DNA of 64,000 nucleotides, taken from the IMG/VR virus record IMGVR_UViG_3300037488_003672, one strand, 5' to 3'. The DNA comes from an uncultured virus (IMG/VR IMGVR_UViG_3300037488_003672) (lineage: Duplodnaviria; Heunggongvirae; Uroviricota; Caudoviricetes). Positions 1,450 through 56,773 of this stretch are shown in pieces. The translations under genes and the position numbers were made by a program. The notes below the pieces were generated by a model. The model saw only the letters and a program-made list of their open reading frames with translations. It was not told the origin of the DNA and searched no databases. Numbering within the stretch: position 1 is the stretch's first letter; each line of letters begins with the position of its first letter.

Positions 1450-2226
1450 ATGCCATTGATCGATAATGACGAACTTACTGATTCAATATATGCAAGTTTA
1501 GAAGGGAAAAAAAAAAAGAAAGTTGGACAAATCGATATGCCTAATGTAAAAACCAAAGACACAAATTCGAAAACTCTGAATGCCACAGCTCAAGTCTTCA
1601 ATCAGAAGAAATTTGAAAAACCTACCACAAACGAATTAAATGAATGGTTTGGACATATTAAAGAATTAGCTATCGAAGTTTTTTATATTGAAACAAGAAT
1701 TCAACCAAATTGCGAATATTGCGAAGCATGGAAAAACAATACCTTAGAACGAAAATGGTTAAAAAAAATTAATGAATTATTGGGTATTAATGAATCTTGT
1801 GTTAGCGTTTCTGATGTTTTGTGTGATTGGAATTGTCTTCATGGTGAAGAATATATCGATCCTATCACAAAACAAATGGTACAATACCCATTAGATTTAG
1901 ATCAGATGGGTGAAGACTATTTCTATGCAACGGGAATGGATATTGATTATTTTCCCGCAATTCGTATTAAATTAAAATCAACAAAATATAAGAATGCTAA
2001 AGAGACTTTCGAAGCCATCTTTCAAGGTATTGGTTCCAAGAATGAAGAAGAAATAAAATATCAATTCAATGGCAATATTTACGGAAAAAAGAAAACAGTA
2101 ATACAAGTAAAAATATTAAAATCATTGTTAAAATTCTTAAAATCAATTAGTATTGAAGACTCAGATATGCCGATTCACGAAAAATTCTCGCTTCTTATGG
2201 GACAAGTTCATCGTCATGGAGAATAA
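1450..2226 (+). CDS. Hypothetical protein with CxxC and further Cys/His
   Basis: 258-aa ORF, gagg upstream, follows previous gene closely. Confidence 0.75.
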   Translation: MPLIDNDELTDSIYASLEGKKKKKVGQIDMPNVKTKDTNSKTLNATAQVFNQKKFEKPTTNELNEWFGHIKELAIEVFYIETRIQPNCEYCEAWKNNTLERKWLKKINELLGINESCVSVSDVLCDWNCLHGEEYIDPITKQMVQYPLDLDQMGEDYFYATGMDIDYFPAIRIKLKSTKYKNAKETFEAIFQGIGSKNEEEIKYQFNGNIYGKKKTVIQVKILKSLLKFLKSISIEDSDMPIHEKFSLLMGQVHRHGE

Positions 2227-2374
2227 ATCACGTGAAAAAGACTTTTTTTTCTTCTTTAGCAATATTTATTTACTCAAAAAATATATCGTATTTATGTCGC
2301 ATAAAATTGCAATTTTTCTGACTGGATTATATTTCTTTACGCTGACTTATTTTACCTTTTTCGCAATTCCTCGG

Positions 2375-2725
2375 TTATTTTATTATTATACTTTCGGTTT
2401 TTTTCCCTAAAGAAGATTTTAATAACAATAAACGTTCGATAAACTCTTCATTTTGAGCAATCTGTTTATATACTCTTCCTATTTTCAAAAAGATCTTATA
2501 TCTATGATACTCTTCAATCCAAACGTCAATTGCTTTTTCTAACGATTTAATATTTTCACTATTAAATGCCTTAGATTCAATTATGTCTTCTAAATCAACT
2601 AAAATTTTGTCATACATTTTCTTCTGACGAAGAATAATCAACCAAGACCGATGTTGAATGGTTTCTTGCTTAAATTTTTCAAATAATTCTTTGACAATTA
2701 TCAAATCTGCTTTTCGTATTTGCAT
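2375..2725 (-). CDS. Hypothetical helical protein
   Basis: 116-aa ORF, tandem with 2734..3081. Confidence 0.6.
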   Translation of the reverse strand: MQIRKADLIIVKELFEKFKQETIQHRSWLIILRQKKMYDKILVDLEDIIESKAFNSENIKSLEKAIDVWIEEYHRYKIFLKIGRVYKQIAQNEEFIERLLLLKSSLGKKTESIIIK

Positions 2726-2733
2726 AAATAATC

Positions 2734-3081
2734 TTACTCCTTAAGCTTTTTATTCTTTTTTTTTTTGGGAATCTTCACATTGACTGCACAAATTCTCGCA
2801 AATTCTTGATTTATTAAATGTTTTAATAAATAAATAGGCGTTTTAACTTCAAACTCACGTTGTAAAATAAAAATTCGTTTCAAATATTGAGGAGAAAAGT
2901 GAAAATTCATTGATAAATCCTTATTTTCAAGAACTAAGTCTTTTATCTTCATTTCCCAATAATCTTCCCTACTAATCATTCTCCCCTTATAATAAAAACA
3001 TAATCTTGTTTTTGTTTGCCTTCTTTTAGGTATCTGCGGTTTTTTCTTATTCTTCTTTCTTATTGTCGTCATAAGTCTCAA
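2734..3081 (-). CDS. Small basic hypothetical protein (probable start ATG 3072)
   Basis: Lys/Arg-rich ORF. Confidence 0.55.
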   Translation of the reverse strand: MRLMTTIRKKNKKKPQIPKRRQTKTRLCFYYKGRMISREDYWEMKIKDLVLENKDLSMNFHFSPQYLKRIFILQREFEVKTPIYLLKHLINQEFARICAVNVKIPKKKKNKKLKE

Positions 3082-3374
3082 CTCATTGGAATATGCGTTT
3101 TCATCCGCTTTTTACTCGAAGGAAATCTAAATATTTATCTATTACATAATTAATCTGGATTGAATAATTTAAATTTTTAATTCTTTTGACTATTTTAAAT
3201 TTGACGACTCCAAATTAAAATGAATTGATTCTTATTTTTTAGAACAGTATTATGCAAATGCCCTTTTCTCAAAAAAAAACAAGTAATTTAAAATTCACGT
3301 GGGAAAATAGTTCCAAAATATTTTTAAACTAAAAAAAAGATATAACACATAATCATTTCTATTGAGGATTATTT

Positions 3375-3800
3375 ATGGCAGACTTATCAAAAGGATTAGG
3401 AAGAATCCGTTTTTTAGTTAGTCGAGTAAAAACGATTACTAAAGACAATGTTAAAAAAATAGAAGCAAATAAAAATGAAGACGTGAAGGCAGTTCTCTTA
3501 TATGCAAAAGAACATAAAATTGAGATTATGCCATTGCTCAACTCATTGAAAAAAACAAAAGGCGATATCTCGAAAGAAAAAATGAAAGAACTCGGTTTTG
3601 GCGAAAATGGCAAAAAAGCCGATGGTAAAAAAGCTAAACCCGTTAAAAAATCGGATAGTACAGCATCAAAACTACAAATTTTAGTTCCCACATCTCTTAC
3701 GTGTCCAGATGAAGATAGTTTAGGTAATGAAGTCTTCTTGGTTATCGGAAAAGACGGACTAATGGGTTGCGGAACTATGATGCAAATACCCGCTGATTAA
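3375..3800 (+). CDS. Lys-rich hypothetical protein
   Basis: 141 aa; CACGTG at 3296, tttttaaa TATA-like box, gagg RBS, T-tract after stop. Confidence 0.75.
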   Translation: MADLSKGLGRIRFLVSRVKTITKDNVKKIEANKNEDVKAVLLYAKEHKIEIMPLLNSLKKTKGDISKEKMKELGFGENGKKADGKKAKPVKKSDSTASKLQILVPTSLTCPDEDSLGNEVFLVIGKDGLMGCGTMMQIPAD

Positions 3801-3908
3801 TACAATTTCTTTTTTTCTAATTTTACTAAAATAAATCAACAAAAACATTAATAAAGTTATTATACTAATTTAGAAACAATGAATTAAAATTAGTTATTCA
3901 TGTGAGAA

Positions 3909-5207
3909 ATGAAAAACTCGTTTGGGATAATTATGGGAAATAAACAAATTGTAAAAGCTCGAATTATGGATTCCAATACCATATCCGAATTTACTTCAGC
4001 AGTTAAACCACTCCGAATTAAAAAGAAGGATGGAAAACCTAAAACTGCTAAAACTGAAGTAATCGAAACAGAAAAAGAATCTCAACCACATCAAAAAATA
4101 CAAATAATTCTCTCCGTATTAGGTGTATTGGGAATAATTGGATCACTGATCCTTAGCACAATTGATGCGTTATGGTTTTATATAACCTTAGTAGCAACCA
4201 CTTTAATCTTAGTTGTTGATTTAACGTTATATTTTAAAAATAACACATCCAACCTCACCGAGAACGAAAAATCGTCTATGAAACTTGCACTAAAAGCAAT
4301 GAATCCAGTTGATAAACGCTTAATTAGTCTCATCTTTATTGGAATACTCGCCAGTAGTATTACTTTAATTGTTGCAGAGATGTGTTATGAAATAACTATT
4401 GAAGTCACTATGTGTGTAGTTGCAATTTTAGAATTAACAATAGGAACAACAATTTACGATAGATTAACCGATGCAAAAAAGAACCCCACCAAATATGCTA
4501 ATTTTCATCCAAAATATCATTTAGCACAAGGTATCATTGTTATGATCTTATTCTTCTTCGCAATACCTACATTATGTGGAATTGATTTATTTTCCTATCT
4601 TAATCTTGAATTAGGTTCGTACAGCTCAGTTAATATCACATATAATCTGATTATGACCTTAGTTGCAATGTCGGGAATCATGGGAATTTTACAAATGAAA
4701 AACACTTTTACTGAAGTTGGCGATTATGATAAAACTTCTTTAATCCGATTCTTAGCAATGATCTTATTACCAATTACAGCATTAATGATATTCCCTATTT
4801 CTTCTCAAACAATTGAACAAGGGGTTATCTTAGGAGCTATTGGAGGATTTGATTATTTCAATGGAATTTTATTATCAATTACTCAATCTCCATATACCTT
4901 ATTTTCGATGGTAGTAATTGTCTTGGGTTCTTTAACAATTATTGTTGGAAAAGCTCAAGGAAAATCTGGATCTGGGTTAATGTCAGTCGGAGCTTTAGGA
5001 ATGGCTGGAGTACCTATGATCATCACCGTTATGGCTTTTATTGGACAAGTCCCAGCTCCCCCCGAATTTTATTCATTATTTGGAGAAGGATTTGCAGAAT
5101 TAATTTATGCAATTTCATATACAACGGTTATCAGTCTTGCTCTTGCCTTAGTCGGTGTATTCTATGAAGTAGTTCCTTCAATCGCAAGTGGTAGCATAGA
5201 CGATTAA
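3909..5207 (+). CDS. Multi-pass membrane protein
   Basis: About 10 hydrophobic segments; C-terminal part resembles ORF 7938. Confidence 0.8.
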   Translation: MKNSFGIIMGNKQIVKARIMDSNTISEFTSAVKPLRIKKKDGKPKTAKTEVIETEKESQPHQKIQIILSVLGVLGIIGSLILSTIDALWFYITLVATTLILVVDLTLYFKNNTSNLTENEKSSMKLALKAMNPVDKRLISLIFIGILASSITLIVAEMCYEITIEVTMCVVAILELTIGTTIYDRLTDAKKNPTKYANFHPKYHLAQGIIVMILFFFAIPTLCGIDLFSYLNLELGSYSSVNITYNLIMTLVAMSGIMGILQMKNTFTEVGDYDKTSLIRFLAMILLPITALMIFPISSQTIEQGVILGAIGGFDYFNGILLSITQSPYTLFSMVVIVLGSLTIIVGKAQGKSGSGLMSVGALGMAGVPMIITVMAFIGQVPAPPEFYSLFGEGFAELIYAISYTTVISLALALVGVFYEVVPSIASGSIDD

Positions 5208-23871: not shown

Positions 23872-26253
23872 ATGAAGTACATATTCGGCAATAACAACGT
23901 GAAAATCGTGGGAGATTCAGCTTCCGATATTGACGTGATTAATAAATTAATGAAATATCTCGAAAAGAACAATTATTATATTACAATTGAAAAATTAAGT
24001 GAAATTTACTCTTCATTATTCTTAACCGATTCTTTAGGTGTAAGGGGTTGTATTCTAAAAGGATTAGCTGGGACTGGGAAAACAAAGTTAGCAGAGTTAA
24101 TTTGTAGTTTCTTCGTTTGGGATTCAATCTATTTTCAAGCTACTTATGGATTAATGGAAGATCAACTGTTATATGATTATATTCCCTCTGAAGAAACCAA
24201 GTCGGGATTTAAAATGATCGAAGGAAAATTAGTACGAGCATTACAACAATCAAAGAACAAACCTACCATGCTAACAATTGATGAATGGGATAAGACTAAT
24301 CCCAATTTAGATTCGGTCTTATTAGATTTTCTTCAGAATGCACGTTTATCATTAGGAAATACCACTTTTGAAGGAACGAAAGAAAACCTTCGGGTAATAA
24401 TTATTTCTAATGATGAAAGACCTTTTTCAAATCCACTCATAAGACGATTGCCATCTATTGAATTACCAATTCCTTCATTGGATATGGTTCGAAAATTCTT
24501 GATCAAAACTTTTGGAAAAGAAAACGCCTATATCGAACCGACCTTACGCCTTTATGAAATAACTCAACTCTGTACTTTAGATCGTAATATTACAATTCAA
24601 GAATTAACCCAATTCATCTCAGCCATTCAATTATTAACCGATGAGAAAACAAAAGTTTCAATGTTAGACTGGGGGGATTTAATCTATATTTATATTGCTA
24701 AAAACGAATATAATTTCAATTTGATCCAAGAAAAATCAGAGTTATTAAAAACGAAAAAACAATTAGAAATAATAAGAAACGAAAAATTACGCAAGATTGA
24801 AATAGAACCTTATGCAAAACTTGAAGAATATACAATTAAAGGCGAAAAGGAAAAACAAACTGAAATTCCTACTGCTGAAACAAGTGAAATTCCTATTGTA
24901 GAATCCAAAGCACTTCCGAAAAATATCCTTCCTCAAACTATCTTTACCATGCCGATCAAAATCGAAAGTTCGCTTAAATTGTCAGAAGAAATACCTCAAT
25001 CTGATAAAAAAGAAATTCAAATCGTAATAAAACGATTAGGTTTAGGGATATTAATCAATCCCGATAACGATTTTAAGATTACACCAAGCGAAGACAAAAG
25101 TTTTTTTGAATTGACGCTTGATACTCAAAAATGTTATTTTTCAGTTACTAATGAATTTATCATGAGTTTTGATCAATTTCCATTAAAATTATATTTGATT
25201 GCTGATGGTAGATTTCGATTCCCAGATATAATTAAGGATATTTCACCTTATTTGATTGCGGGGACTTTTGTTTTTTCGGGAACTCCTCGCTTAACTAATG
25301 AAAACATTCTAAGATTGAAAGATATATTCAAAAACTCAAAATTAGCAACTTATTCTCAAAAAGAGATTCTTCTTATTGGAGAAGAATTCTCGCTTCTTAT
25401 TTCTTATGTAGACAATAAGACATTCTTATGGATTTCCGATGGACAAACTTTTTCAGAAAGCCAACATAATCTAAATTACACATTTCAAATGACCATTACT
25501 GAAAAGGAATTACTCGAAGAACAAATGAATGCAAAGAAGATCAAAGAAGAGACATCTAAGAAAGAAATGGAAGAAAAAGAAAATCAATTAACAAAAGAAG
25601 AAGCAAAGAAGAAAGAAACGGAAGAAAAGGAACAATTGGCTTTAAAAATAAAAGAATTAAATGAACAAATTAATAAAAAAGGGAAGATACCTCTTAAAGT
25701 GCAGCTAACACAAGACTTTTCGAATACTACTGCGAAAATAGTACTTATAGATACTTTAGAAAGTTCTTTAGATGTGTCAATTCAATATGCCGAATTAATT
25801 CTTAATCATGAAAAAGAACTACTTACAAGAATTCCTAATATAATACAAGAAATACATACGATTATTCCCTATTTATATGATGTTAAACTATTTATTGAAA
25901 GCAAAACGGATGCCTTTAACCTTATGGAGTTTAGAAGGGAAAATTCGAATAACATATTTAATGAAATATTTGCAATACATTTTGAGTCTTGTCAATATAT
26001 AACATTTGACTTATGGAAATCCCTTAGATTTAACGATCCTAAACAAGAAACCAAACAAGAAACCAAAGAAGAAACCAAAGAAGAAACCAAAGAAGAAGAC
26101 GAAAAGATCGATGAACAAAAAACCATGAGTTTAAATAAATTAAACCATCAATTTTTTGATAATCTTATTTTAGAAATCATTAAAAAAACGAAGAAAGAAA
26201 CGAAGAATAAAATTAAGAATAAAACCGAACAAATATTCAAAAAGGGGAAATAA
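23872..26253 (+). CDS. MoxR-type AAA+ ATPase with long C-terminal extension
   Basis: Walker A GLAGTGKT, Walker B LTIDEWDK, LLDFLQ, ISNDER...LIRR; followed by a vWA gene. Confidence 0.85.
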   Translation: MKYIFGNNNVKIVGDSASDIDVINKLMKYLEKNNYYITIEKLSEIYSSLFLTDSLGVRGCILKGLAGTGKTKLAELICSFFVWDSIYFQATYGLMEDQLLYDYIPSEETKSGFKMIEGKLVRALQQSKNKPTMLTIDEWDKTNPNLDSVLLDFLQNARLSLGNTTFEGTKENLRVIIISNDERPFSNPLIRRLPSIELPIPSLDMVRKFLIKTFGKENAYIEPTLRLYEITQLCTLDRNITIQELTQFISAIQLLTDEKTKVSMLDWGDLIYIYIAKNEYNFNLIQEKSELLKTKKQLEIIRNEKLRKIEIEPYAKLEEYTIKGEKEKQTEIPTAETSEIPIVESKALPKNILPQTIFTMPIKIESSLKLSEEIPQSDKKEIQIVIKRLGLGILINPDNDFKITPSEDKSFFELTLDTQKCYFSVTNEFIMSFDQFPLKLYLIADGRFRFPDIIKDISPYLIAGTFVFSGTPRLTNENILRLKDIFKNSKLATYSQKEILLIGEEFSLLISYVDNKTFLWISDGQTFSESQHNLNYTFQMTITEKELLEEQMNAKKIKEETSKKEMEEKENQLTKEEAKKKETEEKEQLALKIKELNEQINKKGKIPLKVQLTQDFSNTTAKIVLIDTLESSLDVSIQYAELILNHEKELLTRIPNIIQEIHTIIPYLYDVKLFIESKTDAFNLMEFRRENSNNIFNEIFAIHFESCQYITFDLWKSLRFNDPKQETKQETKEETKEETKEEDEKIDEQKTMSLNKLNHQFFDNLILEIIKKTKKETKNKIKNKTEQIFKKGK

Positions 26254-31025: not shown

Positions 31026-31091
31026 GAACTCACGTGAAAGTTTAAATTACTTTAACGCTCCTTTTTTATTAACATCAAATTGTGTGATAAT

Positions 31092-32705
31092 ATGGTACAA
31101 TTTAAATTTAATAAAGATGGAAATGCGTATGTTAATGATTTAGCAAAACATCCCAATTCCTTTATTCAAATTGGAGGCGATATTGCGTGGAAGTCCTATG
31201 GAGGTCTCTTTGCATGGTACGATCCAATTAATGAAACAGTAGCAGTTTATAACATCTCCGAGCTTACAGATGCTGAATTAGAAGGGAAATACTCTGTTGG
31301 TACTCAAACCTTTTATTTAGATGAATTTGAGTTTGATCTTAAACAATTAGGATTAGATAAAGTTCAAGATTTGAAATTGAGTCAAATTCTTCGAGAACAA
31401 GTGGGCATGTCTGGCTGTGATGACGAAGTTTATTGCGAAAAATGCAAATCTAAAGATAGAACTATCTTTCCAAATGCTGAAATGGTTGAAAGCCAGATTT
31501 TTGAAAAGGAAATTGTACATGGATTTGGTGAAATCGAACCCGATCAATTAATTATGCAATATTCGGATTCATTTAAACGAGCCAGATTCAAAAATCCTTC
31601 CGAAATTAATAAATATATTTTAGAAAATATTGTCTATCTGAAATTAGAAGGAACAGATCCAATCACCGATTGGTTCGCTTATTCGTTATTAATTACCAAT
31701 AATCGTATAAAAATCAATTGGGATAAGAAGAAAGAAGTCAATGCGTTAGGTGAATCCTTAAATTCAACCCAAAATTGTTATTATGATTTGAAAGAGAAAA
31801 AAATTGTTGCAATGCCGAAAGGTCATTCGGAAGAATCTTTACTTAATTCGCAAAAAGGCAAAACTCACGTGAAAACTTCAATCGTTGCAAAAAAGAGTTC
31901 TAAGAAAATCAGTACAAAGAAGCCCGAACCCACTAAAGTTATTCCAAAAAAGAGTTCCAAGAAAATCACTACAAAGAAGCCCGAACCTACTAAAGTAATT
32001 CCAAAAAAGAGTTCTAAGAAAATCAGTACAAAGAAGCCCGAACCCACTAAAGTTATTCCAAAAAAGAGTTCCAAGAAAATCACTACAAAGAAGCCCGAAC
32101 CTACTAAAGTAATTCCAAAAAAGAGTTCTAAGAAAGCTATTCCAAAACATTTCAAATGTGAATATATTAATGAATTGGATATTACTGTTCCAGACTTCAA
32201 AACCTTTAAAACCTTTAAAATGCAATTTGGGGTTTTGGTAACAAATCCTTATATCATCGACGGAGTATCCATTGTATTAGGAATACGGAAAGAAGATCTT
32301 GAGACTGTCCCTTATTTATTAGATCTTGAGACTGTTACTGTCGTTTATTTATTAGATCCTAACACTTTTGATGTAACTCCCGTAGATATACGTCTCATTA
32401 AAACAGTGAATAATGAAAAACCATTATCTGAAGAGAAAATGATTGATTTTATTAGTTTTGATCATGGTTTAGATTTTGAAAAAGAAGCAAAAATAAATTA
32501 TAAAAAAATAAAAGCCTTTCAAAAAGAACTTATGAAATGTGAGTATATTGATCTTATGGATCTTAAAAAATATCCTAAAGGTTATCGCTTGGAAAAGAGT
32601 TCCAAGAAAACCACTGCAAAGAACGAATCTACATCGGTGAAACCACTTACACTAAAAGAAAAACTATTACTTATGAAAAAAGAAAAAGAACCAAAGCGAA
32701 CCTAA
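31092..32705 (+). CDS. Hypothetical protein: MVQFKFNKDG N-terminus, Lys-rich repeats; partial paralog of ORF 47713
   Basis: ATG 31092; shared SDSFKR...EIN.YIL.NI.Y domain and KKSSKK repeats. Confidence 0.8.
   Translation: MVQFKFNKDGNAYVNDLAKHPNSFIQIGGDIAWKSYGGLFAWYDPINETVAVYNISELTDAELEGKYSVGTQTFYLDEFEFDLKQLGLDKVQDLKLSQILREQVGMSGCDDEVYCEKCKSKDRTIFPNAEMVESQIFEKEIVHGFGEIEPDQLIMQYSDSFKRARFKNPSEINKYILENIVYLKLEGTDPITDWFAYSLLITNNRIKINWDKKKEVNALGESLNSTQNCYYDLKEKKIVAMPKGHSEESLLNSQKGKTHVKTSIVAKKSSKKISTKKPEPTKVIPKKSSKKITTKKPEPTKVIPKKSSKKISTKKPEPTKVIPKKSSKKITTKKPEPTKVIPKKSSKKAIPKHFKCEYINELDITVPDFKTFKTFKMQFGVLVTNPYIIDGVSIVLGIRKEDLETVPYLLDLETVTVVYLLDPNTFDVTPVDIRLIKTVNNEKPLSEEKMIDFISFDHGLDFEKEAKINYKKIKAFQKELMKCEYIDLMDLKKYPKGYRLEKSSKKTTAKNESTSVKPLTLKEKLLLMKKEKEPKRT
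31890..32135 (+). repeat. 57-bp coding tandem repeat x4.3 (KKSSKKI[S/T]TKKPEPTKVIP)
   Basis: Alternating A/B units give a 114-bp super-period. Confidence 0.95.
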
Positions 32706-34689: not shown

Positions 34690-35565
34690 TTATTTCATAA
34701 ATCTTTGAAGGTTTGAAAATTGCCCTATTCGTTTTTTTATTATTGTTTTAAATTCTGGATTTATTTCAAATCCGATACTATTCCGTTTTAAATCTTTGGC
34801 TGCTCGACTCGTTGTCCCAGTACCAGCAAAAGGATCGAGAATTAAATCTCCAATAAAACTCCATAAAGTGATACATCTTTTAGGAATTTCAATTGGATAC
34901 GCTGCTGGATGTCCATCAACATGATCACCAGCAAATGACCAGATTTGAGATGTATATTCTTCCCACGTTTTTTTAGATATTTTAGATTGTTCTCTTATAT
35001 CTTGAGAACGAGAAATTGGTTTAGATTCGGGATTAGTTTTTTTTCTAAAAATCAAAACATATTCTATTTTTGATGAAACATGTGCACTTGGAGGATAGGG
35101 ATACGAACCAATAAAATTTAACGCAGATGTATGTTGTGCCGCCCCACCTCCAATTTTTTCCCACAATATTGCACCAAGATATTTAAAATTCTCTGATATT
35201 GCATCTTCAATTAAATAAGCATGAAGTGGAATCATCTCAAAATTACCTCTCAATTTTGGATCGGCTATTTCTCCAGATGGAACGGTTTTATCTCGGATAT
35301 TTACAATCATTCTTCTTGCTTCTTTTAAAACTCGAAAACATTCTCTAAAAACTTCTCTAATTTTTTCCCGATATTGTTCCATAGATTGTCCAAAACCTAT
35401 TTGGTTTTTATTTCCATAATCTTTCAAATTCCAATAAGGAGGAGATGTTATTATTAAATCTATTGATTCATTTTCAATTCTTTGTTTCATTCCTTCAATA
35501 CAATCTTGAAAATATATCTTCTGATTAGTGATTCCATCATTGATTTCAAAAAAATTTTCTTCCAT
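34690..35565 (-). CDS. Beta-class amino DNA methyltransferase (N4-C/N6-A)
   Basis: Motif IV ITSPPY before motif I LDPFAGTGTT; HPAAYP. Confidence 0.9.
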   Translation of the reverse strand: MEENFFEINDGITNQKIYFQDCIEGMKQRIENESIDLIITSPPYWNLKDYGNKNQIGFGQSMEQYREKIREVFRECFRVLKEARRMIVNIRDKTVPSGEIADPKLRGNFEMIPLHAYLIEDAISENFKYLGAILWEKIGGGAAQHTSALNFIGSYPYPPSAHVSSKIEYVLIFRKKTNPESKPISRSQDIREQSKISKKTWEEYTSQIWSFAGDHVDGHPAAYPIEIPKRCITLWSFIGDLILDPFAGTGTTSRAAKDLKRNSIGFEINPEFKTIIKKRIGQFSNLQRFMK

Positions 35566-37368: not shown

Positions 37369-37896
37369 ATGAATATGCAATTTATTAGCAGAAATGAAAA
37401 ATCAAGCGATCTCTGGGAGACTCCCCTTGATTTTTTTGAACCCCTTAATCGTGAATTTCACTTTACGTTAGACGCTTGTGCATCACATGAAAATCACCTA
37501 CTTCCCAAATATTTTACGATTGAAACTAACGGACTAATACAAAGCTGGGAAGGAGAATGTGTGTTTATTAATCCTCCTTTTTCCACATTCTCCGCATGGA
37601 TTGAAAAAGCCTATTTTGAATCGAAAAAAAACGATATCACCATTGTAATGATTATTCCTTCCCGAACTGATACAAAAGCGTGGCATAATTTTGCGATGAA
37701 AGCTAACCAAATTCGCTTTTGCATCCCCAGAGTTAATTTTTTATTAAATAAACAAAAAACTAAGAATGGATCGACCTTTCCCTTATCAATTATTGTCTTT
37801 CAACCCAATAAAAACCCCTATCCTTCGGTTTCAAGTTATTATTGGAAAGAACAATCAAAAAATCCGTTAAAAAAAGGAGACGTTTTCTTTTATTAA
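37369..37896 (+). CDS. Phage-type DNA N6-adenine methyltransferase (Dam-like family)
   Basis: WETP, FTLDACAS, VFINPPFS, PSRTDT motifs. Confidence 0.9.
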   Translation: MNMQFISRNEKSSDLWETPLDFFEPLNREFHFTLDACASHENHLLPKYFTIETNGLIQSWEGECVFINPPFSTFSAWIEKAYFESKKNDITIVMIIPSRTDTKAWHNFAMKANQIRFCIPRVNFLLNKQKTKNGSTFPLSIIVFQPNKNPYPSVSSYYWKEQSKNPLKKGDVFFY

Positions 37897-38948: not shown

Positions 38949-39776
38949 TTAAATATGTTTTAAGAGTTTATAGAGTTGACGAATTTGTTTCTGTCCAAAT
39001 TTTATTTTATATTTTTTGATCAATTCCTCAAATTTATACGATCCTAAGAACAATTCTAACCAAATTGCTTCTTCTACTGTCCAGAACGAATAATTATCAA
39101 ACGATAATTCTTTTCGGTTCCTTCTCTCAAACACAGATTCTCCTTCCTTCAAAATCCGAGCATAATTTCGAGAAGCCCAAATATCTGCATAGAAATAATC
39201 ATAATGTTTCTCACTTTTATAATGAAAGAAATTGGCTTCTATCAAGTTCACTTTCGGATGGTTTGGGAAGAGTTCTTCATACATTTGAATTGCTAACGCA
39301 TCATTATCAATAACATCAATCGATAAAACCGATTCTTTTTCTTGTAATTGATTCACAATAAATCCTAAGCCTAAACCCGCAATCAATATATGACCATTTC
39401 CCCATAAAAACGGATTGATATGGGATTGTACTTCCATCGGACTAATTGACATATATAATTCTCCATCCAGATAGAGAACGGGATATTTCATATTCTCGTT
39501 TAAAATCGTATCATTTGAGAGGTAAAAATCAAACTTATTTCCAGACTCAAAATTTAGTATATCAATCTCCGCAAAATCTCGCTCAACTTTCCGATATTGT
39601 TTTGAAATCGCATTACAAAAATCAGCATATATTCGTTGATCAGTGAACAAACCTTTTTTTAATTCTCGCAATAAATCCGAAATTAACGGTTTTCGTTGAG
39701 TAAAAATCTTAGGCGTTATAGATGCTTGAAACGATTCTCTCTCTCCATCGTTTTGAAATCGAAATTTCTTAATCAT
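38949..39776 (-). CDS. Class I SAM-binding fold protein (spermidine-synthase/methyltransferase-like)
   Basis: ILIAGLGLG, IDVID, YDYFYADIW; N-terminus MIKKFRFQNDG. Confidence 0.7.
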   Translation of the reverse strand: MIKKFRFQNDGERESFQASITPKIFTQRKPLISDLLRELKKGLFTDQRIYADFCNAISKQYRKVERDFAEIDILNFESGNKFDFYLSNDTILNENMKYPVLYLDGELYMSISPMEVQSHINPFLWGNGHILIAGLGLGFIVNQLQEKESVLSIDVIDNDALAIQMYEELFPNHPKVNLIEANFFHYKSEKHYDYFYADIWASRNYARILKEGESVFERRNRKELSFDNYSFWTVEEAIWLELFLGSYKFEELIKKYKIKFGQKQIRQLYKLLKHI

Positions 39777-43233: not shown

Positions 43234-43741
43234 GGAGCTTTGGGAACATATCATAATAATGTTCGGGGATTTTTTCTTTTTCTTTGAAATACCAAAACTG
43301 AATGACAATTACTTCTTTTGATAACGTCTTATCAACAATTCGAGCTAATAGATGAGATTCTTGAATCAATTGATTCAATTTGTTATATACATTTCGATTA
43401 ACTTGATAATCAAAACGGAAATTAAATAAAACTTCCTTCTCGTTTCGCAAATGTTCTAAAATGAGATTATAATAAAAATCGGATTGTTCAGCTTGCGAAG
43501 TTTTAATTTCGGAATCGATCTTGCATTTGGAAAGATCGCAAGGATCAGTACTTTTACAATCGCATTTCACCCCAATTTCGTCAAAAAAACAATTGTAATC
43601 AAGAACTGCTTGTTTTGGAGTTATAGAAGATTCACATATACCAAATTTTCTTCCGCAACACTTACAAATTCCAAAAAGAGTGTATTTAGAGGGGATTTGA
43701 AATTTTCCTTCGATTTTATTCACAAATTCTAAATTCATCAT
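43223..43741 (-). CDS. Cys-rich hypothetical protein
   Basis: CKCC, CDC clusters. Confidence 0.6.
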   Translation of the reverse strand: MMNLEFVNKIEGKFQIPSKYTLFGICKCCGRKFGICESSITPKQAVLDYNCFFDEIGVKCDCKSTDPCDLSKCKIDSEIKTSQAEQSDFYYNLILEHLRNEKEVLFNFRFDYQVNRNVYNKLNQLIQESHLLARIVDKTLSKEVIVIQFWYFKEKEKIPEHYYDMFPKLPIF

Positions 43742-43828
43742 ATATGATCTTTAGAAAACCATAAATAAATACCTTTTGGAAATAAAAGAAATAACATACA
43801 TAAAATCCACGTGAAAAAATAAGGAAAA

Positions 43829-44350
43829 TTAAAAATAATCTTGCTGATAAACTAAATCAAATCGCTTTTTCGCAACTTCATAATCCGATTCATTATATAC
43901 CCAACTTTCGACAATTTTTCCAAAATTCTTAGTCGCAACCATATAGGTCTTTGAGTTTGAATCAAATGACAAGACCAATAAAACATTATGATTTAAAAAG
44001 CGATATTCGATTAATTCTTTCGAAGGGGCATCCGTTTTGGTTGCGACGGGAGATTTATTTTGTAATTCGCTTACAAAACTATAAGATAAAAACATAAAAA
44101 GATAGTTATATATTTGACTTTGATTAGATCCCGTTTCATATTTCAGTATATTTTGAGCCAAATCATATATTTCTTCTTCAGTAATGATAACATAGGTAGA
44201 ATCAACGCTCATTTGATCATTTATCTTTCTTGCTAATGGGGTTGTAGCTAATTGTGAATATGACCAAATGGCATTAGAATATGCACAATAATCGTCAGAT
44301 GGATAAACTGATACAAAAGACGATATATCTAAAATATTTACTTGTTTCAT
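43829..44350 (-). CDS. Hypothetical protein
   Basis: 173 aa, divergent from 44425; its first ~14 codons recur at 46107..46147. Confidence 0.7.
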   Translation of the reverse strand: MKQVNILDISSFVSVYPSDDYCAYSNAIWSYSQLATTPLARKINDQMSVDSTYVIITEEEIYDLAQNILKYETGSNQSQIYNYLFMFLSYSFVSELQNKSPVATKTDAPSKELIEYRFLNHNVLLVLSFDSNSKTYMVATKNFGKIVESWVYNESDYEVAKKRFDLVYQQDYF

Positions 44351-44517
44351 ATTTTACTCTTCCGCGTGAAAGTTTATATTCATTAGGATCACATTTTTTA
44401 TTAAACATTCTAATGTGAAGAAAAATGGTAAAATTTGAATTTAATCAAGATGGAAGCGTCAAAAATATCTCTCAGACAAATATCTCCGCAAATAAATCGC
44501 CAGAAGATTCTAAATTA
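44310..44517 (+). repeat. Promoter plus leader-peptide cassette, copy 1 (copy 2 at 46107..46325; partial copy 3 at 47648..47741)
   Basis: Near-identical DNA spanning the motif, TATA-like box and MVKFEFNQDGSVK codons. Confidence 0.9.
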
Positions 44518-46005
44518 TTTATGAATAAAATATATGATTATATTGTTATTGGTATGGGATTAAGTGGATTATCTTGTGCCTTAAAATTAACACAAAAATA
44601 TCCTCAAAAATCAATATTATGCTTAGAGCAAAATGATCAAGTCGGGGGTTATGCTGTCAATTTTAAAAGAAAGGATTTTAGATTTGAAGTATCTCTTCAT
44701 TATTGCGGAAAACCAATGAAAAATTCAATTAACGAATTAAATTTGACTGATATTTCTTTAATTGAATGTCCAATTTGGAAAGAATCCATTATTAAAGACA
44801 AACATTATTTTTACTCATGGAATCATCTGGAATATCAAAAAACACTTTCAGAACAATTCCCCCTCGAAAAAGAAAACTTAGAGCGATTCTTTGGTGAAAA
44901 CATGGCAATTGCCCCCTTCTTAGCTGAATTTGCAACAAAGGGTGGTATTAAAAAATTTTATTATAGCTTAAAAAATATATCCAAACTGATGAAAGTCAAA
45001 GATTTAGTTAAACTAAATGCAAAAGAGTTATTGGATCAATATTTTCAAGATCAAAAATTAAAAACAGAGTTATTCTCTCTCGCATCTTATTTTGGTTCTA
45101 CTCCAGAAGTATTAAGTGCAATTATATATATCGCATCTGTTCTCAATATGTTTTGTCAAGGTTCATATTATATTAAAGGGGGTTCTGAAGCATTAACACG
45201 ATCTATGGCAAATCATATTAAACAAAATAATGGAACTATCGAGCTAAATGCCAAAGTGAATGAAATTATTGTAATCAATAATCAAATTAATACCATAAAA
45301 TATGTTCAAAACAAAATTTCGCATGAAATTAAGGGAAAAAAAATTATTTTTGCGGGGGATATTCATAATTTAATGGAAAATATAATTCATCAAACCATAC
45401 TTGATTCTAAAGTAAATATTCTTCAATTAACCAATATAAACAAAAAATCAATTGTTGAAGCCATATTTGAAGTTTGGATCGGATTAGATATTGCATTAAA
45501 AGATTTCAACTTACCTAATTATGCTACTGAAATCGAAACACAATCGGGTAAATTCTATTTCACGAACTATTCTAATATTGATGCTACTTGTTCCCCTCAA
45601 GGAACATCTGCGATCACATTATTAAAAATTACAACGATAGATAAATTTGAAGAAGCTGTGAAATTGGATGGAAATAAGCGAGGAAAAAACTACTATCACC
45701 TAAAGGAAGAAGAAACAAAAAAAATGGTTGATGAATTTATTAATGTCTTGAAAACATATATCCCCGACATTAAAAATCATATCAAAGTTATTGAAAGTGC
45801 ATCTCCAATCACTATGAAACGCTATACCTCTAATTATCGAGGTTCATTTGGGGGATTTCAACCATCACATGAAAACATGATTAAAAACCCCATCCCGAAT
45901 GAAACCCCAATCCCTAATCTATTTCTTTTATCACAATGGGTTGGATTTGGAGCTGGTTATGAGATGACTATTCGTAATGGATTAGAATTAGCAAAAAAAA
46001 TATAA
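44425..46005 (+). CDS. FAD-dependent oxidoreductase, phytoene desaturase (CrtI)-like, with 32-aa N-terminal extension
   Basis: YDYIVIGMGLSGL, LEQNDQVGGY..F.RKDFRFEVSLH, SPITMKRYT...G, TPIPNLFL. Confidence 0.85.
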   Translation: MVKFEFNQDGSVKNISQTNISANKSPEDSKLFMNKIYDYIVIGMGLSGLSCALKLTQKYPQKSILCLEQNDQVGGYAVNFKRKDFRFEVSLHYCGKPMKNSINELNLTDISLIECPIWKESIIKDKHYFYSWNHLEYQKTLSEQFPLEKENLERFFGENMAIAPFLAEFATKGGIKKFYYSLKNISKLMKVKDLVKLNAKELLDQYFQDQKLKTELFSLASYFGSTPEVLSAIIYIASVLNMFCQGSYYIKGGSEALTRSMANHIKQNNGTIELNAKVNEIIVINNQINTIKYVQNKISHEIKGKKIIFAGDIHNLMENIIHQTILDSKVNILQLTNINKKSIVEAIFEVWIGLDIALKDFNLPNYATEIETQSGKFYFTNYSNIDATCSPQGTSAITLLKITTIDKFEEAVKLDGNKRGKNYYHLKEEETKKMVDEFINVLKTYIPDIKNHIKVIESASPITMKRYTSNYRGSFGGFQPSHENMIKNPIPNETPIPNLFLLSQWVGFGAGYEMTIRNGLELAKKI

Positions 46006-46223
46006 GATTTAATTTTTCCAATTTGTGAATAAGTTCCAAAGACAATTAATTGCCGATTCTAAACAACATTTTTTTATCCAATTGTCCGATTCTGTAATTA
46101 CTAAAAGATACAAAAGACGATATATCTAAAATATTTACTTGTTTCATATTTTACTCTTCCACGTGAAAGTTTATATTCATTAGGATCACATTTTTTATTA
46201 AGAAATCCTATTTGTGAAGAAAA

Positions 46224-47621
46224 ATGGTAAAATTTGAATTTAATCAAGATGGAAGCGTCAAAAACATCTCTGAGACACAAGATTCTTCCCCTTCGGTAAA
46301 TAAATCGCCAGAAGATTCTAAATTAGATCGATCCTTTGTCGATTCATTCATTCGTAATAATATTAAAGATATTTATTATGATTTAGATTTAAGAATCCTT
46401 TATTATGCGAAAGGAAAAAGACATTATCAACCTATTGTTTCTCTATTAACTCCAATTGAAAATGTTCTAATCATAAGCAATCGTGCATTTGATACATTGA
46501 TTAAACCATTCTTAGAGATTTATCCTTCTTATCTTAACGATAGTAATAGTTTCGACCATTTTTTTGGAAAATTGGATATTCATATTAACCCTCTATTCAA
46601 ATATGCAAATTTTAACGATATTTTTGAAAAAGAAAAAGAAGAAAAAGAAATTGAATACGGAGAAGAAGAAATTGAATATGGTGAGTTCTATAACTCGAAG
46701 ATCCATCTTGTTTTAGGTGAAGAAAAGAAACCCACTAAGAAGACTTCCAAGAAAAGCACACCTAAGAAGACCACAGCAAAGAAGACCACAGCAAAGAAAC
46801 CCACTAAGAAGACTTCCAAGAAAAGCACACCTAAGAAGACCACAGCAAAGAAACCCACTAAGAAGACTTCCAAGAAAAGTACTGCACTAAACACAGTAGA
46901 AACCATATACTTAGGAAATTGTGAATTAATTGATACTATTTTTTCTAAAGAAGTGAGTTCAAAAGAAGAAATTGCTAATACTAAAAAAGACCTCCCCGAA
47001 TATATCAAAGAATTTCAAAGATGGGGGATATTCTGGAAAATAAAAGAAGACGATCATCAATTTGAAATTCAAGAAACACTTCTTCAATTAGCAACGGAAA
47101 AAACTTTATCTCAAAATTATATCCTTGTCTATGATCTTTCAACGAAAGGACAAGAATCAGAAGACTTTATGGGAATTATTGTGAATCGGAAATCAGAAGA
47201 GATAAAAATAGAAATGAAGATAATTGAAAAGATACAAACTCGATTAGAAATTGATAAAATAATTAGGCAAAAAATTAAACACATATATTATAATAATGAA
47301 CTAAAAATGGTCTTCCTCCTCCTTAGAAAAGCTGAAGATAATGAATTTGTATTTAGACCTTTACTTTCAATAGTAGTACCGATTGAAAATGACGATATTA
47401 TTGTAAATAAAAAGATTAAAGAGACCAAATTCTCTCCATTTTTACCAAACTATCCCCAATATCTCGAAGATCCCAATGGTCTTGATCATTATTTTAGATA
47501 TTGGAAAATTAATGCAGAGCCTTATCCGAATCCAATAAAGGAGATTACTTATGATGTTTATTCTAAACAGATTCTCCCTCAAATTAAGCACACTTATGAA
47601 CAATTCGAAGATTTTTTTTAA
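46224..47621 (+). CDS. Hypothetical protein: MVKFEFNQDG leader, duplicated domain, H1-like Lys/Thr-rich linker
   Basis: Two copies of an IR..IK.IYY...PIEN...PFL..YP.YL.D.N..DH.F domain. Confidence 0.8.
   Translation: MVKFEFNQDGSVKNISETQDSSPSVNKSPEDSKLDRSFVDSFIRNNIKDIYYDLDLRILYYAKGKRHYQPIVSLLTPIENVLIISNRAFDTLIKPFLEIYPSYLNDSNSFDHFFGKLDIHINPLFKYANFNDIFEKEKEEKEIEYGEEEIEYGEFYNSKIHLVLGEEKKPTKKTSKKSTPKKTTAKKTTAKKPTKKTSKKSTPKKTTAKKPTKKTSKKSTALNTVETIYLGNCELIDTIFSKEVSSKEEIANTKKDLPEYIKEFQRWGIFWKIKEDDHQFEIQETLLQLATEKTLSQNYILVYDLSTKGQESEDFMGIIVNRKSEEIKIEMKIIEKIQTRLEIDKIIRQKIKHIYYNNELKMVFLLLRKAEDNEFVFRPLLSIVVPIENDDIIVNKKIKETKFSPFLPNYPQYLEDPNGLDHYFRYWKINAEPYPNPIKEITYDVYSKQILPQIKHTYEQFEDFF
46725..46883 (+). 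repeat. Coding repeats KKPTKKTSKKSTP / KKTTA
   Basis: aagaaacccactaagaagacttccaagaaaag x3. Confidence 0.9.
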
Positions 47622-47712
47622 TTTTTTATCTAAATTTCAGATGAAAACCACGTGAAAGTTTAAATTCATTAGGATCACATTTTTTATTAAGAAATCCTAT
47701 TTGTGAAGAAAA

Positions 47713-48963
47713 ATGGTAAAATTTGAATTTAATCAAGATGGGAGTGTTAAGAAAGTATCCCATGATCAAGATTCTGTTTCTAATGCAGTCAAATTAGATA
47801 ACTTATTATCTGAATCTGACGATTCGTTTAAACGCCTTCGTCTCGAAAAGCCACATGAAATTAATGACTATATCCTAACCAATATTATTTATGTAAAGAA
47901 AAGTAAAACAAATTGGATGGGTTATGGTCTTCAGATTACGAGTACTCGCTTAAAGAATAATCACTTAACGGTTAATTGGAATAAAAAATATCCTTCAATT
48001 ATAACTAACTTAGTGTCATCATTAGGATTAACCGAAAATTGTTATGTCGATCTTAAACTTCAAAAAATAGTAGCACTTCCCAAAATTCATGCTGAAGAAG
48101 CTATTTTAAACGATCCTAATATACAAACTTCTCCTAAACCGAGTTCGAAAGCAGTTAAAACAATTCCAAAAAAGAGTTCTAAGAAAACCACTACAAAGAA
48201 ACAAGAACCCACTAAAGTTATCCCAAAAAAGAGTTCTAAGAAAACCACTACAAAGAAACAAGAACCCACTAAAGTTATCCCAAAAAAGAGTTCTAAGAAA
48301 AGGACTGCAAAGAAGGCAAAAAATGAACCAGATCCAAAATATTTATTTCAATATGATCCCCTCTTTAAGGAAGATAAGAAAAAAGATGAACCATATTTTG
48401 AAGAATATGAACTACCATCTGAGATGATCATTCCAATCTCCAGTTTTAACTTATTGGAGAATGTAGCATTTAAGAACGCCATTACTGCTACAACCATGAG
48501 CGATTCAAACGTTCCAATATTCAAAAATAGTTTATATAAATCACAAAATGAGATTAACACAAATTTTGATGAAACCATCCTTACTGAACTATTCAATCAA
48601 ATGAATAGAAATGACAATAAATTTAAGATAGAAGATTATTCAAATAATCTTAGCATGATCGATAATTTAATCTATGAAAGTAAAGGAAATGGGAAATTAA
48701 AAGAACTTTTTAAAATAATTCATGCACATTATACAAGAATAACATTCAAAAGCCTTAGTGGTAATGATACTCTCCCGTTATTAGCACTCTTAAGCTATGA
48801 TCGTATGTTAGTCGGGATTCTTGCAATTCCAGAAGATGAATTTCCAACCAAAGACAAACTCTTCTCTCAATATTTTAAACTTAAAGATCCCATAACCGAA
48901 CCGTTCTTTTGGGTTAAAGATCCCCCGAAACCAAAAAAAAGTAAAAAAAAAACCAAGAAATAA
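47713..48963 (+). CDS. Hypothetical protein: MVKFEFNQDG leader, Lys-rich repeats; partial paralog of ORF 31092
   Basis: Shared domain and 19-aa repeat. Confidence 0.8.
   Translation: MVKFEFNQDGSVKKVSHDQDSVSNAVKLDNLLSESDDSFKRLRLEKPHEINDYILTNIIYVKKSKTNWMGYGLQITSTRLKNNHLTVNWNKKYPSIITNLVSSLGLTENCYVDLKLQKIVALPKIHAEEAILNDPNIQTSPKPSSKAVKTIPKKSSKKTTTKKQEPTKVIPKKSSKKTTTKKQEPTKVIPKKSSKKRTAKKAKNEPDPKYLFQYDPLFKEDKKKDEPYFEEYELPSEMIIPISSFNLLENVAFKNAITATTMSDSNVPIFKNSLYKSQNEINTNFDETILTELFNQMNRNDNKFKIEDYSNNLSMIDNLIYESKGNGKLKELFKIIHAHYTRITFKSLSGNDTLPLLALLSYDRMLVGILAIPEDEFPTKDKLFSQYFKLKDPITEPFFWVKDPPKPKKSKKKTKK
48169..48300 (+). repeat. 57-bp coding repeat x2.3 (KKSSKKTTTKKQEPTKVIP)
   Basis: Same family as 31890..32135. 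Confidence 0.9.
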
Positions 48964-55583: not shown

Positions 55584-55654
55584 GCCAAGATTCTTTTTTT
55601 CACGTGAAAAAGATTTTTATTGAAAACAATCATAAATATATTGAAGGAAAAAAT

Positions 55655-56773
55655 ATGACTATGAACATAACATTCAAGGATGGTGAATTTTTTGACGATC
55701 CCCTTATGCAAGACTTAATTACCGATGAAGCGGGATCAGCCTTAACCACGCCTACACAACTTAAACAAGCTCTTCGAGATGGATTCCTCGAAGCATCAAA
55801 AAGTTTTGCAATGCAATTACAACAAATGCACGATCTTAAACCATTTGATAAAAAAAAATGGAAAAAAAGAACCTATCGAGGAGGCTTATTCGATGTGGAT
55901 GACATTATCGATATGACCTTATTGACGGGAGTTAAAACCTTACGAGAACGGAAAAAAATGCGAATAAATCCCGACAAACCACGTGTAGCATTACTCTTAG
56001 ATGTGTCATATTCAATGCATCGAAGTAAAGTAAAACGAGCGTCTCTCCTCTTGGGAATCGCTTTAACCGAATTATTAGGAGAAGGGTTTGCTGAAAGTTT
56101 GAGTTATGGAACAATTGGGGGAACAGTATGCGAATATCGATCCAGAGAAGATTTTAAAAACATACAACGCAGAATTCTGACTGCTGATTTTTGTGAAGGA
56201 TCTACCAATTTCTCTCCCGTTCTTGACGAGATGGAAGCTCAAGATTTCTATAATACTCGAATTACGAAATATATTTTTCTCATAACTGACGGTGTACCAG
56301 AAAATCATGGAGTTTCTATTCAACATGCATCACAAGGAATACTCCCCTATAATCCATCAGCTTCGTTAAAAGATATAGAGATCACGATTGATTATATAAC
56401 AAATCGATGGCGAAATGATGATCGGGTAGAATATTTTTGGATTCAAATAGGAAAAGTACCCACTTTTTTAGAATGGGTTTGCCTTTTTAATTATTGTCCC
56501 ATAGTTCGAACCGAATGTCCTTGGATCAAAGAAGATGAATGGAATATTTGGGTTGCAAGTAGTGATTATGCTGATAAATTACAAAAGTCTAATTTAGTTT
56601 TAGCTCAAGGAACTGGAGAACATTATAATTATCGCTTATGGGTTAAATTTTGCTTGGATCAATATGCTCAAGGGGATATGTTTTACATGACCGTTGATGA
56701 TCTTAAAAAGAATGGGATTCATTCATTAGTCGATTATTTCAAACTTAAATTTCAAAAGAAGATACAAATATGA
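55655..56773 (+). CDS. vWA-domain protein (paralog 2)
   Basis: LLLDVSYSM, FLITDG; ATG 55655 after gaagga preferred over GTG 55604, which lies inside the motif. Confidence 0.8.
   Translation: MTMNITFKDGEFFDDPLMQDLITDEAGSALTTPTQLKQALRDGFLEASKSFAMQLQQMHDLKPFDKKKWKKRTYRGGLFDVDDIIDMTLLTGVKTLRERKKMRINPDKPRVALLLDVSYSMHRSKVKRASLLLGIALTELLGEGFAESLSYGTIGGTVCEYRSREDFKNIQRRILTADFCEGSTNFSPVLDEMEAQDFYNTRITKYIFLITDGVPENHGVSIQHASQGILPYNPSASLKDIEITIDYITNRWRNDDRVEYFWIQIGKVPTFLEWVCLFNYCPIVRTECPWIKEDEWNIWVASSDYADKLQKSNLVLAQGTGEHYNYRLWVKFCLDQYAQGDMFYMTVDDLKKNGIHSLVDYFKLKFQKKIQI

Follow-up and report, generated by a model that had tools for sequence, protein, structure and literature searches.

How does a gene of cellular type come to begin with the codons of an unrelated gene family? 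The question is raised by a locus in the window analyzed here, i.e., a 64-kb stretch (64,000 nucleotides [nt]) of a 119,250-bp contig from sediment that is recorded as an uncultured virus (IMG/VR IMGVR_UViG_3300037488_003672); the contig has 28 to 35% GC, is gene-dense, and encodes mostly ORFans. At this locus, the open reading frame (ORF) 44425-46005 starts as MVKFEFNQDGSVKNISQTNISANKSPEDSKL-F-MNKIYDYIVIGMG, in which a leader shared with lysine-rich proteins of the same element is joined through one Phe to a flavin adenine dinucleotide (FAD)-dependent oxidoreductase. From the anatomy of its junctions, we consider it likely that this chimeric gene arose when a gene without a promoter was inserted into the 5′ portion of a resident one. 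An earlier reading made from the letters alone (the sequence-only reading) had proposed the capture of a cellular gene behind a duplicated expression/targeting module, showing how new cargo could acquire a tag. The capture stood, as the junctions mark the enzyme gene as an insert behind a promoter plus 5′ coding cassette; the tag and the cargo were not borne out.

The insertion is recorded in a direct repeat that brackets the enzyme gene and takes in the first codons of a divergent gene, as had been noticed before; local alignment gave its exact bounds (copy A, 44310-44517; copy B, 46107-46325), with 200 matches over 208 positions, 8 mismatches, and 11 indel bases. Leftward, copy A continues unbroken into the intact divergent gene, which had no Pfam, PHROG, or NCBIfam match. 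Rightward, copy B continues unbroken into an intact member of the lysine-rich family, and at its left end it holds a stub with the start and 13 to 14 codons of the divergent gene, followed by an unrelated 33-codon frame up to a stop. Because copy A joins the intact divergent gene, and copy B joins the intact paralogue and a stub only, the segment 44518-46106 appears to be the insert. Its coding content is the enzyme ORF alone, the remainder being a noncoding flank with an oligo-T run at about 46069-46075. Copy A ends on the right after leader codon 31 (codon 34 in copy B and in another strain) and passes via TTT to the ATG of the enzyme, giving the joint peptide SPEDSKLFMNKIYDY, in which the enzyme starts at Met33 as MNKIYDY. 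The in-frame extension that had been described as nearly identical to the start of ORF 46224 thus consists of 31 leader codons plus one Phe before Met33. Among the 25 pairs listed, no pairing inverted repeat was found at the insert ends, the stretch 46082-46106 had no second copy within the window, and no transposase or integrase family was matched among the 52 window ORFs scanned with Pfam. A transposon insertion with target-site duplication was rejected, as the duplication measures 208 to 219 bp versus 2 to 15 bp and there are neither transposon ends nor a transposase.

The 5′ cassette carried by this repeat is found elsewhere in the element. A third partial copy, reported earlier at the head of ORF 47713, was confirmed by local alignment with copy B (46159-46286 versus 47648-47775; 118 matches and 7 mismatches), and a fourth, unlisted in the sequence-only reading, precedes ORF 31092-32705 and has 82 of 104 bases the same as cassette B. 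Outside the cassette, B and C matched at only 193 of the next 300 nt and at 35 of the preceding 60 nt in a global alignment. On its left, the A/B repeat exceeds the B/C cassette by 52 nt, which takes it into the divergent gene. The 20-nt leader start occurred 5 times at no more than 3 mismatches versus 0.21 expected (5 were reached in 0 of 100 shuffles), and a 26-nt untranslated core was exact in all three of the copies A to C, with 0.00 expected.

By sequence comparison, the leader is the ordinary N-terminus of an element-specific family of three lysine-rich paralogues (46224, 47713, and 31092). ORFs 44425, 46224, and 47713 have the common opening MVKFEFNQDGSVK, and the family is bound together by a post-leader domain (47713 versus 31092; E value, 4.1e-19) and by KKxxKK-type tandem repeats. 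Even the old paralogue 31092 retains the core M-V-x-F-x-F-N-x-D-G, so the peptide is probably of importance to the family. The leader thus has four carriers, namely, the three paralogues and one unrelated body, the enzyme. A search with residues 1 to 40 against 5.8 billion protein clusters (255 to 814 amino acids [aa], word-indexed) gave two candidates, both of them this contig's own; HMMER against 1.84 billion representatives gave only the element's own paralogue and one junk-like repeat protein, and a profile search with the family alignment had only the contig's own proteins among the matches listed. The leader DNA had no exact match in viral contigs and, as a degenerate pattern, none in metagenome and genome contigs. 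By inspection, the leader has no hydrophobic core and no signal-peptide-like features, and on the chimera it was modeled as disordered (predicted local distance difference test [pLDDT] score below 50 at residues 1 to 5 and 12 to 33). The module had been called a targeting cassette and the leader a tag; this part of the sequence-only reading is unsupported, because the leader is a family N-terminus and is found on no other body.

The bodies of the paralogues gave little further information. Paralogue B had only sub-threshold HC2/DUF6465 matches in Pfam, the AlphaFold2 model of paralogue C was unusable at a mean pLDDT of 30.4, and the ESM Atlas yielded no usable feature match for the lysine-rich proteins, with all structure template modeling (TM) scores at or below 0.25. 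Tandem repeats with 15-nt periods and 69-nt units were seen in ORF 46224 (46721-46912) and with 57-nt units in ORF 47713 (48156-48326), and the copy number of the lysine-rich repeats varies between strains in both ORFs and also in 31092-32705; e.g., a variant of paralogue B (P0014) has 490 aa and more repeat units versus 465 aa in the window. A variant of ORF 31092 (P0018; 830 aa, on a 34,191-bp contig) was 98.5% identical to the window ORF over residues 1 to 533. Its last ~297 residues had no counterpart anywhere in the window, so a C-terminal module was either lost in the window or gained in this variant.

The enzyme half of the chimera was matched by Pfam to Amino_oxidase (E value, 2.1e-16) and NAD_binding_8 (E value, 1.4e-8), and the N-terminal FAD-binding β-α-β unit with its GxGxxG motif is present as GMGLSG at residues 43 to 48. 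An AlphaFold2 model of the chimera had a mean pLDDT of 82.2. A Foldseek search with this model returned the γ-carotenoid desaturase 4rep at the top (TM scores, 0.75/0.80), then CrtI 4dgk, and also the Methanosarcina oxidoreductase 3ka7; judged from the model, the enzyme is a complete CrtI/CrtD-fold FAD oxidoreductase with a three-domain CrtI-like fold. All NCBIfam scores fell below the curated cutoffs, at 76.9 bits versus 238.1 for crtI_fam (TIGR02734), 86.3 versus 549.7 for CrtD, and 73.3 versus 586.9 for the carotenoid isomerase. Because these scores are far under every curated cutoff, the earlier label "phytoene-desaturase-like" is valid at the superfamily level, where Pfam and the fold agree with it, and fails at the family level, where the TIGR02734 cutoff was missed. 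By its sequence, the enzyme is a member of the amine-oxidase/CrtI superfamily (PF01593) only. No carotenoid pathway genes were seen among the window ORFs in the Pfam scans.

The leader was absent from all seven homologues in an 8-sequence alignment, and the alignment with the solved CrtI structure 4dgk begins at query residue 40. This agrees with the expectation that homologues would align only from about residue 33. Met33 lies 10 residues before GxGxxG; among 13 additional homologues from genomes, those with an ATG upstream mostly had the nearest one 8 to 22 residues before the same motif. The sequence-only reading had likewise given the enzyme its own Met, at 44521, where Rossmann-fold proteins normally start.

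The nearest cellular relatives of the enzyme were proteins of archaeal metagenome-assembled genomes (MAGs), with 32 to 33% identity. In a maximum-likelihood tree of 21 sequences, from which two partial sequences (L008 and the hit P0009), a duplicate (P0002), and the strain variant P0012 were omitted, the enzyme grouped with those of a Promethearchaeota MAG contig (L002) and a "Bathyarchaeota" MAG contig (L005) with a support of 100/99, and other Asgard and bacterial sequences were more distant. The MAG contigs of the relatives had ordinary cellular neighbor genes, and a cellular enzyme family is supported by these comparisons. The enzyme gene has a GC content of 0.293, the same as its surroundings. 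With this GC content and a best identity of 32 to 33%, the capture appears to be either old or from an unsampled lineage, and the phylogeny, which had been expected to identify the donor lineage, left no donor nameable. One further locus, the only one from a metagenome scan with P0012 (L001; Ga0114997_10013898, 1-4200), was rejected as a relative. It is an unrelated AT-rich row of crtI-crtB-lycopene cyclase-blh-like genes of the retinal pathway, drawn in mainly via MNKIYDYIIIGAG, the start of its cyclase, which resembles that of the enzyme.

The cassette in front of the enzyme carries a word that is frequent in the element. CACGTGAAA occurred 31 times in the window versus 0.31 expected, almost always between genes and often as the full palindrome TTTCACGTGAAA, and an A/T box (TTTATATT or TTTAAAT) usually follows within a few bases. 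An ATG-started ORF of at least 60 aa begins 30 to 90 nt downstream of 13 of the 31 copies versus 15% of random positions. A scan of the region for sigma-70 promoters was at chance (26 found versus 25.9 expected). CACGTGAAA has the appearance of a promoter or regulator site specific to the element, possibly a bidirectional one, and together with the A/T box we take it to be an extended B recognition element (BRE)/TATA-type promoter of the element, going by the archaeal promoter consensus. As for translation, words resembling GTGA, GGTGA, or GGAGG are found ahead of many of the 43 ORF starts that were inspected, and several ORFs have none. GTGA is found at −10 to −7 before 44425, with the same word and spacing at the starts of ORFs 46224 and 47713, and no such word precedes 44521.

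To see the locus in other strains, we compared positions 43500-48000 with the Logan contigs (contigs, not reads) of four sediment runs. The strain in X1 differs slightly from that of the window: an 840-nt contig covering the divergent gene has 9 differences, and the enzyme segment has 3 in 1,657 nt. Separate X1 contigs span the leader/enzyme junction (44436-46083) and the flank/copy-B junction (46054-46136; depth, 14.4). The former carries an extra net 9 nt in the leader, so the frame is kept. The chimera was also found as a 529-aa variant (P0012) with the full-length 34-residue leader followed by Phe and Met. The fusion is therefore present in at least one other strain. Variants of the 173-aa divergent gene were found on other contigs (P0020 and P0021; P0020 with 98.8% identity); P0012 and P0020 are each on a 3,781-bp contig, presumably one and the same. 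A joint of 46081 to 46143, which skips 61 nt, was seen in X1 (depth, 19.4) and X2 (depth, 2.8), in one contig each. Both forms of 46082-46142 coexist in X1, and X2 showed the deleted form only; the skip is most simply read as junk that was deleted later. For the enzyme gene, X2 coverage is limited to 45868-46081. X3 is represented at the divergent gene, in cassette A as far as 44411, and from 47723 onward in paralogue C, with no genuine coverage of paralogue B or the enzyme gene. It is the best lead to a strain with different content between the cassettes, although the uncovered parts of contigs are no evidence in themselves. Copy A of X3 reads CACGTG, the canonical form, at the site of CGCGTG in the window, and the G at 44364 of the window is an A in copies B and C as well as in X3.

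The cassette copies appear to exchange sequence by gene conversion. We draw this from the contrast between the B/C cassette, with 118 of 128 positions identical, and the bodies behind it, with 193 of 300, and from an X2 contig on copy B (46162-46327; depth, 3.3) that carries copy-A-type variants in the untranslated part, where copy B of the window equals copy C. Furthermore, untranslated and synonymous sites are as conserved among copies A to C as the peptide is, which points to gene conversion rather than to selection on the peptide. Since copies A and B have diverged more (8 of 208 nt) than the strains have in the enzyme segment (3 of 1,657 nt), the event would predate the strain split.

Taken together, these observations suggest the following course. 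The ancestor would have had the divergent ORFan gene on the minus strand, a 74-nt bidirectional promoter region, and the lysine-rich paralogue B. A 1,589-bp piece, comprising 3 nt of upstream sequence, the complete enzyme ORF, and a 3′ flank of about 100 nt that includes the oligo-T run, would have been joined after codon 34 of paralogue B, and the ~208 to 219 bp to the left of the joint (13 to 14 codons of the divergent gene, the promoter region, and 34 leader codons) would have been duplicated on both sides of it. The recombination path could have been a one-step template switch, a tandem duplication with replacement of the upstream body, or the integration of a circle. Cassette A would then transcribe the enzyme gene from the element's own type of promoter, CACGTGAAA with its A/T box, and translation would begin at the resident start 44425 and read in frame through 31 leader codons into the enzyme. 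The in-frame joint may have persisted because the captured ORF brought no signals for initiation, there being no ribosome-site-like word before Met33, and with cassette B to maintain full expression of paralogue B, the insertion would have been without cost. Transcription of the enzyme gene probably ends at the oligo-T run that follows it, and the cassette copies would later have exchanged sequence by gene conversion. On the enzyme, the leader is most likely a tolerated disordered N-terminal extension and not a signal.

Several observations weigh against this account. The promoter word of copy A in the window is mutated to CGCGTG, and no empty site was found, i.e., no contig across the insert in the four runs, although contigs cannot show absence. 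No donor locus was found either, and the insertion was read from the anatomy alone. The 9-nt difference in the leader between strains had a one-in-three chance of being in frame without selection, and the two strain differences in the enzyme ORF (44942 and 45342) are both nonsynonymous by codon reading, which gives no sign of purifying selection, two sites being too few. The archaeal assignment of the element is based on the resemblance of its promoter and ribosome-site words and on the nearest enzyme relatives only, and its AAA ATPase was matched in 0 of 5 Asgard genomes and the N-terminal domain of the lysine-rich family in 0 of 400 genomes of the phylum.

Other accounts agree with parts of the same evidence. 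The cassette might supply transcription only, with the enzyme made from Met33 (44521) and the 32 upstream codons untranslated or a by-product. Met33 sits at the start point of the homologues, the leader adds nothing to the modeled fold, and the window ORFs that lack a ribosome-site-like word make leaderless or unusual starts possible. We nevertheless regard it as somewhat unlikely, because 44425 is in frame with no stop up to 44521 and has the GTGA word at the spacing used by both resident paralogues where 44521 has none, and because a complex 9-nt change has interrupted neither the leader nor its frame in two strains. An unlikely course, to a slightly greater degree, is one in two steps, in which a unit of stub, promoter, paralogue B, and terminator was duplicated in tandem and the upstream body was then replaced by the enzyme ORF, leaving the terminator of B in place. 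The tandem paralogues B and C do suggest a locus prone to duplication, and 46070-46090 behind the enzyme matches 47622-47642 behind paralogue B at 17 of 21 positions. However, this likeness of the 3′ flanks is weak and anchored on the T run; it was reached in 96 of 1,000 shuffles in the unbiased test, and was rejected as nonsignificant on that count, and in 6 of 1,000 only in a post hoc narrow test. Such a course would also need two precise events instead of one. A mis-join at the repeat during assembly, which repeats of ~200 bp can cause in short-read assemblers, is hardly credible as the source of the fusion, given that contigs of another strain cross both junctions and that the separate 3,781-bp contig encodes the same chimera.

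Alternatively, a circle with the cassette and the enzyme gene may have integrated by homologous recombination at a resident cassette, as in the shuffling model of promoter-early stem-loop (PeSL) cassettes described in PMC2839356. A single crossover of such a circle gives repeat-insert-repeat, the threefold array of cassette and gene fits the layout, and the cassette copies exchange sequence. It is improbable in our view, as the A/B repeat, 52 nt longer leftward than the B/C cassette, is not a standard cassette unit, no stem-loop was detected in the cassette (fold z-scores of 0.20 for B, −0.32 for A, and −0.40 for C), no cassette-bounded gain or loss was seen in the contigs of the four runs, and the fusion event would merely be moved elsewhere. 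Slightly more improbable is that the leader is a functional address, i.e., a packaging, localization, or assembly tag, by which the enzyme was recruited as cargo. The core kept in the old paralogue 31092 would agree with this, as would the other carriers, which are lysine-rich and possibly DNA-binding (by the weak, sub-threshold HC2 match), and the T4 internal proteins offer a precedent in which, as far as PMC3012670 describes them, diverse bodies share only the capsid targeting sequence. On the other hand, only one non-family body carried the leader in the searches made, the leader lacks signal-peptide-like features by inspection, and its conservation in A to C covers synonymous and untranslated sites as well, as gene conversion would have it. 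Moreover, none of the 52 window ORFs matched a capsid, portal, terminase, or protease in PHROGs or Pfam, so there is as yet nothing for the enzyme to be cargo of, contrary to the "new cargo" of the sequence-only reading. The wider version, in which the cassette is a portable module and recombination linker for foreign ORFs whose MVxFxFNxDG peptide directs its carriers to a particle or to the element DNA, is more doubtful again; if true, the locus would be to an archaeal element what the internal-protein locus is to T4, in which a targeting peptide goes together with flanks that bear promoters. An insertion behind a duplicated 5′ cassette remains the explanation that we prefer.

Table 1. Positions in the window of the chimeric gene, the cassette copies, the resident genes, and the promoter-like word
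Feature	Position	Strand	Remarks
Divergent ORFan gene, 173 aa	43829-44350	-	ORF call; first 41 nt within repeat copy A
Repeat copy A, 208 nt	44310-44517	+	41 nt of divergent gene, 74-nt intergenic promoter region, 31 leader codons
Promoter-like core, cassette A	44363-44380	+	CGCGTGAAA (1 change versus CACGTGAAA), then G and A/T box TTTATATT
Chimeric ORF, 526 aa	44425-46005	+	Leader residues 1-31, Phe32, oxidoreductase from Met33
Putative inserted segment, 1,589 nt	44518-46106	+	TTT, enzyme ORF 44521-46005, and 101-nt 3′ flank
FAD oxidoreductase proper, 494 aa	44521-46005	+	CrtI/CrtD/amine-oxidase superfamily; GMGLSG at chimera residues 43-48
61-nt polymorphic stretch	46082-46142		25 nt and most of the divergent-gene stub; missing in one form seen in X1 and X2
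Repeat copy B, 219 nt	46107-46325	+	Heads intact paralogue 46224
Dead stub of divergent gene	46107-46147	-	Inside copy B; reads MKQVNILDISSFVS
Paralogue B, 465 aa	46224-47621	+	34-aa leader, internal duplication, lysine-rich repeats (KKTSKKSTPKKTTAKK...)
Cassette copy C	47648-47775	+	Promoter-like core, untranslated part, first ~21 codons
Paralogue C, 416 aa	47713-48963	+	Lysine-rich 19-aa repeats
Older fourth family member	31030-32705	+	Diverged cassette and ORF 31092-32705, 537 aa, MVQFKFNKDGN...
CACGTGAAA sites, examples	2229, 17499/17504, 23826/23831, 29713, 31031, 33183/33188
CACGTGAAA sites, further examples	42027/42032, 46160, 47649, 55601/55606, 57065

The element that holds this locus is unclassified and ORFan-rich and, judging from its sequence, is probably an archaeal extrachromosomal element or virus. 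Pfam matches were found in 10 of 40 further window ORFs, none of them structural, and the window contained no tRNA genes and no Rfam family. Among IMG/VR contigs, there was no relative with paralogue B, the enzyme, a 1,497-aa ORF, or the AAA ATPase, and tblastn searches of 50,697 phage records with the 1,497-aa ORF and the ATPase found nothing. The window genes include ribbon-helix-helix regulators and an RNase T-like exonuclease. The ATPase is a 793-aa AAA_5 protein of the MoxR/dynein type (23872-26253), and a VWA-like protein, recognized by language-model similarity only, is encoded 30 kb away (55604-56773). AAA_5 ATPases and VWA proteins usually act together as pairs. Three DNA methyltransferase-like genes are found within 5 kb (34690-35565, 37369-37896, and 38949-39776), with matches to N6_N4_Mtase (E value, 1e-44), a phage-type Dam (E value, 1.5e-30), and, more weakly, a methyltransferase PHROG; they are consistent with a mobile element or virus that evades restriction.

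The locus offers an unusually legible record of how a foreign gene that probably arrived without a promoter may be domesticated by the genome of a virus or mobile element. The two junctions remain readable, as do the dead stub, the intact parent gene, and the duplicated target, and the fused state occurs in more than one strain. It suggests that an ORF lacking a promoter and ribosome site can be supplied with substitutes through translational fusion with a 5′ cassette of the resident genome, and that such cassettes may afterwards be homogenized by gene conversion. The locus further draws attention to a 119-kb element from sediment that is unclassified and has a strongly overrepresented promoter word of its own. 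The event itself is of a known kind, i.e., chimeric gene birth by insertion and duplication of a resident 5′ region, of which this is a clear further example, and a new targeting system is not revealed by the present evidence.

Chimeric genes born by duplication and fusion, or by the capture of a 5′ exon or promoter, have been described among the new genes of many genomes. As in those cases, a duplicated resident 5′ region supplies both regulatory and N-terminal coding sequence here, and the parent gene remains intact; the difference lies in the setting, which is a compact prokaryote-type element with a 208-bp repeat resembling a target-site duplication, without a transposase or terminal inverted repeats. 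At the level of mechanism, the closest parallel appears to be the PeSL cassettes, the mobile regulatory cassettes of the T4-type phages RB49 and phi1 (Arbiol et al. 2010; PMC2839356). As described there, conserved regulatory cassettes stand in direct repeat before successive accessory genes of a plastic region, the placed gene is expressed from a resident-type promoter, and the cassette copies recombine. The trait of a promoter-bearing cassette before accessory genes is represented here by three near-identical copies and one diverged copy with a CACGTGAAA-type word. In contrast to PeSLs, the cassette here lacks a stem-loop or terminator part and includes a coding leader of 31 to 34 codons, so that capture amounts to a translational fusion; its A/B repeat overruns into the neighboring gene, and its promoter type looks archaeal rather than sigma-70-like. 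Across the contigs of the four runs, only the 61-nt skip was seen, which is not cassette-bounded, and mini-circles were not seen.

The capsid targeting sequence of T4 is a short N-terminal peptide on divergent proteins of a small hypervariable locus (Virol J 2010; PMC3012670; also Repoila 1994, as cited in PMC2839356), and the T4 internal-protein locus that carries it is the nearest counterpart to the tag idea. The likeness, as far as these sources describe the T4 system, is in the shared N-terminal peptide, the conserved promoter-bearing flanks of the locus, and the basic nature of the carriers; the difference is that three of the four carriers here are true paralogues, with no evidence of a virion, a prohead protease, or cleavage. 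The morons of lambdoid phages (Hendrix et al. 2000, via PMC2839356) are, in that account, single foreign genes added with their own promoter. Like a moron, the enzyme gene would be one foreign gene placed between resident genes by apparently illegitimate recombination and bringing a terminator. Unlike a moron, it appears to have come without a promoter and to use a duplicated resident promoter, ribosome-site-like word, and start codon instead.

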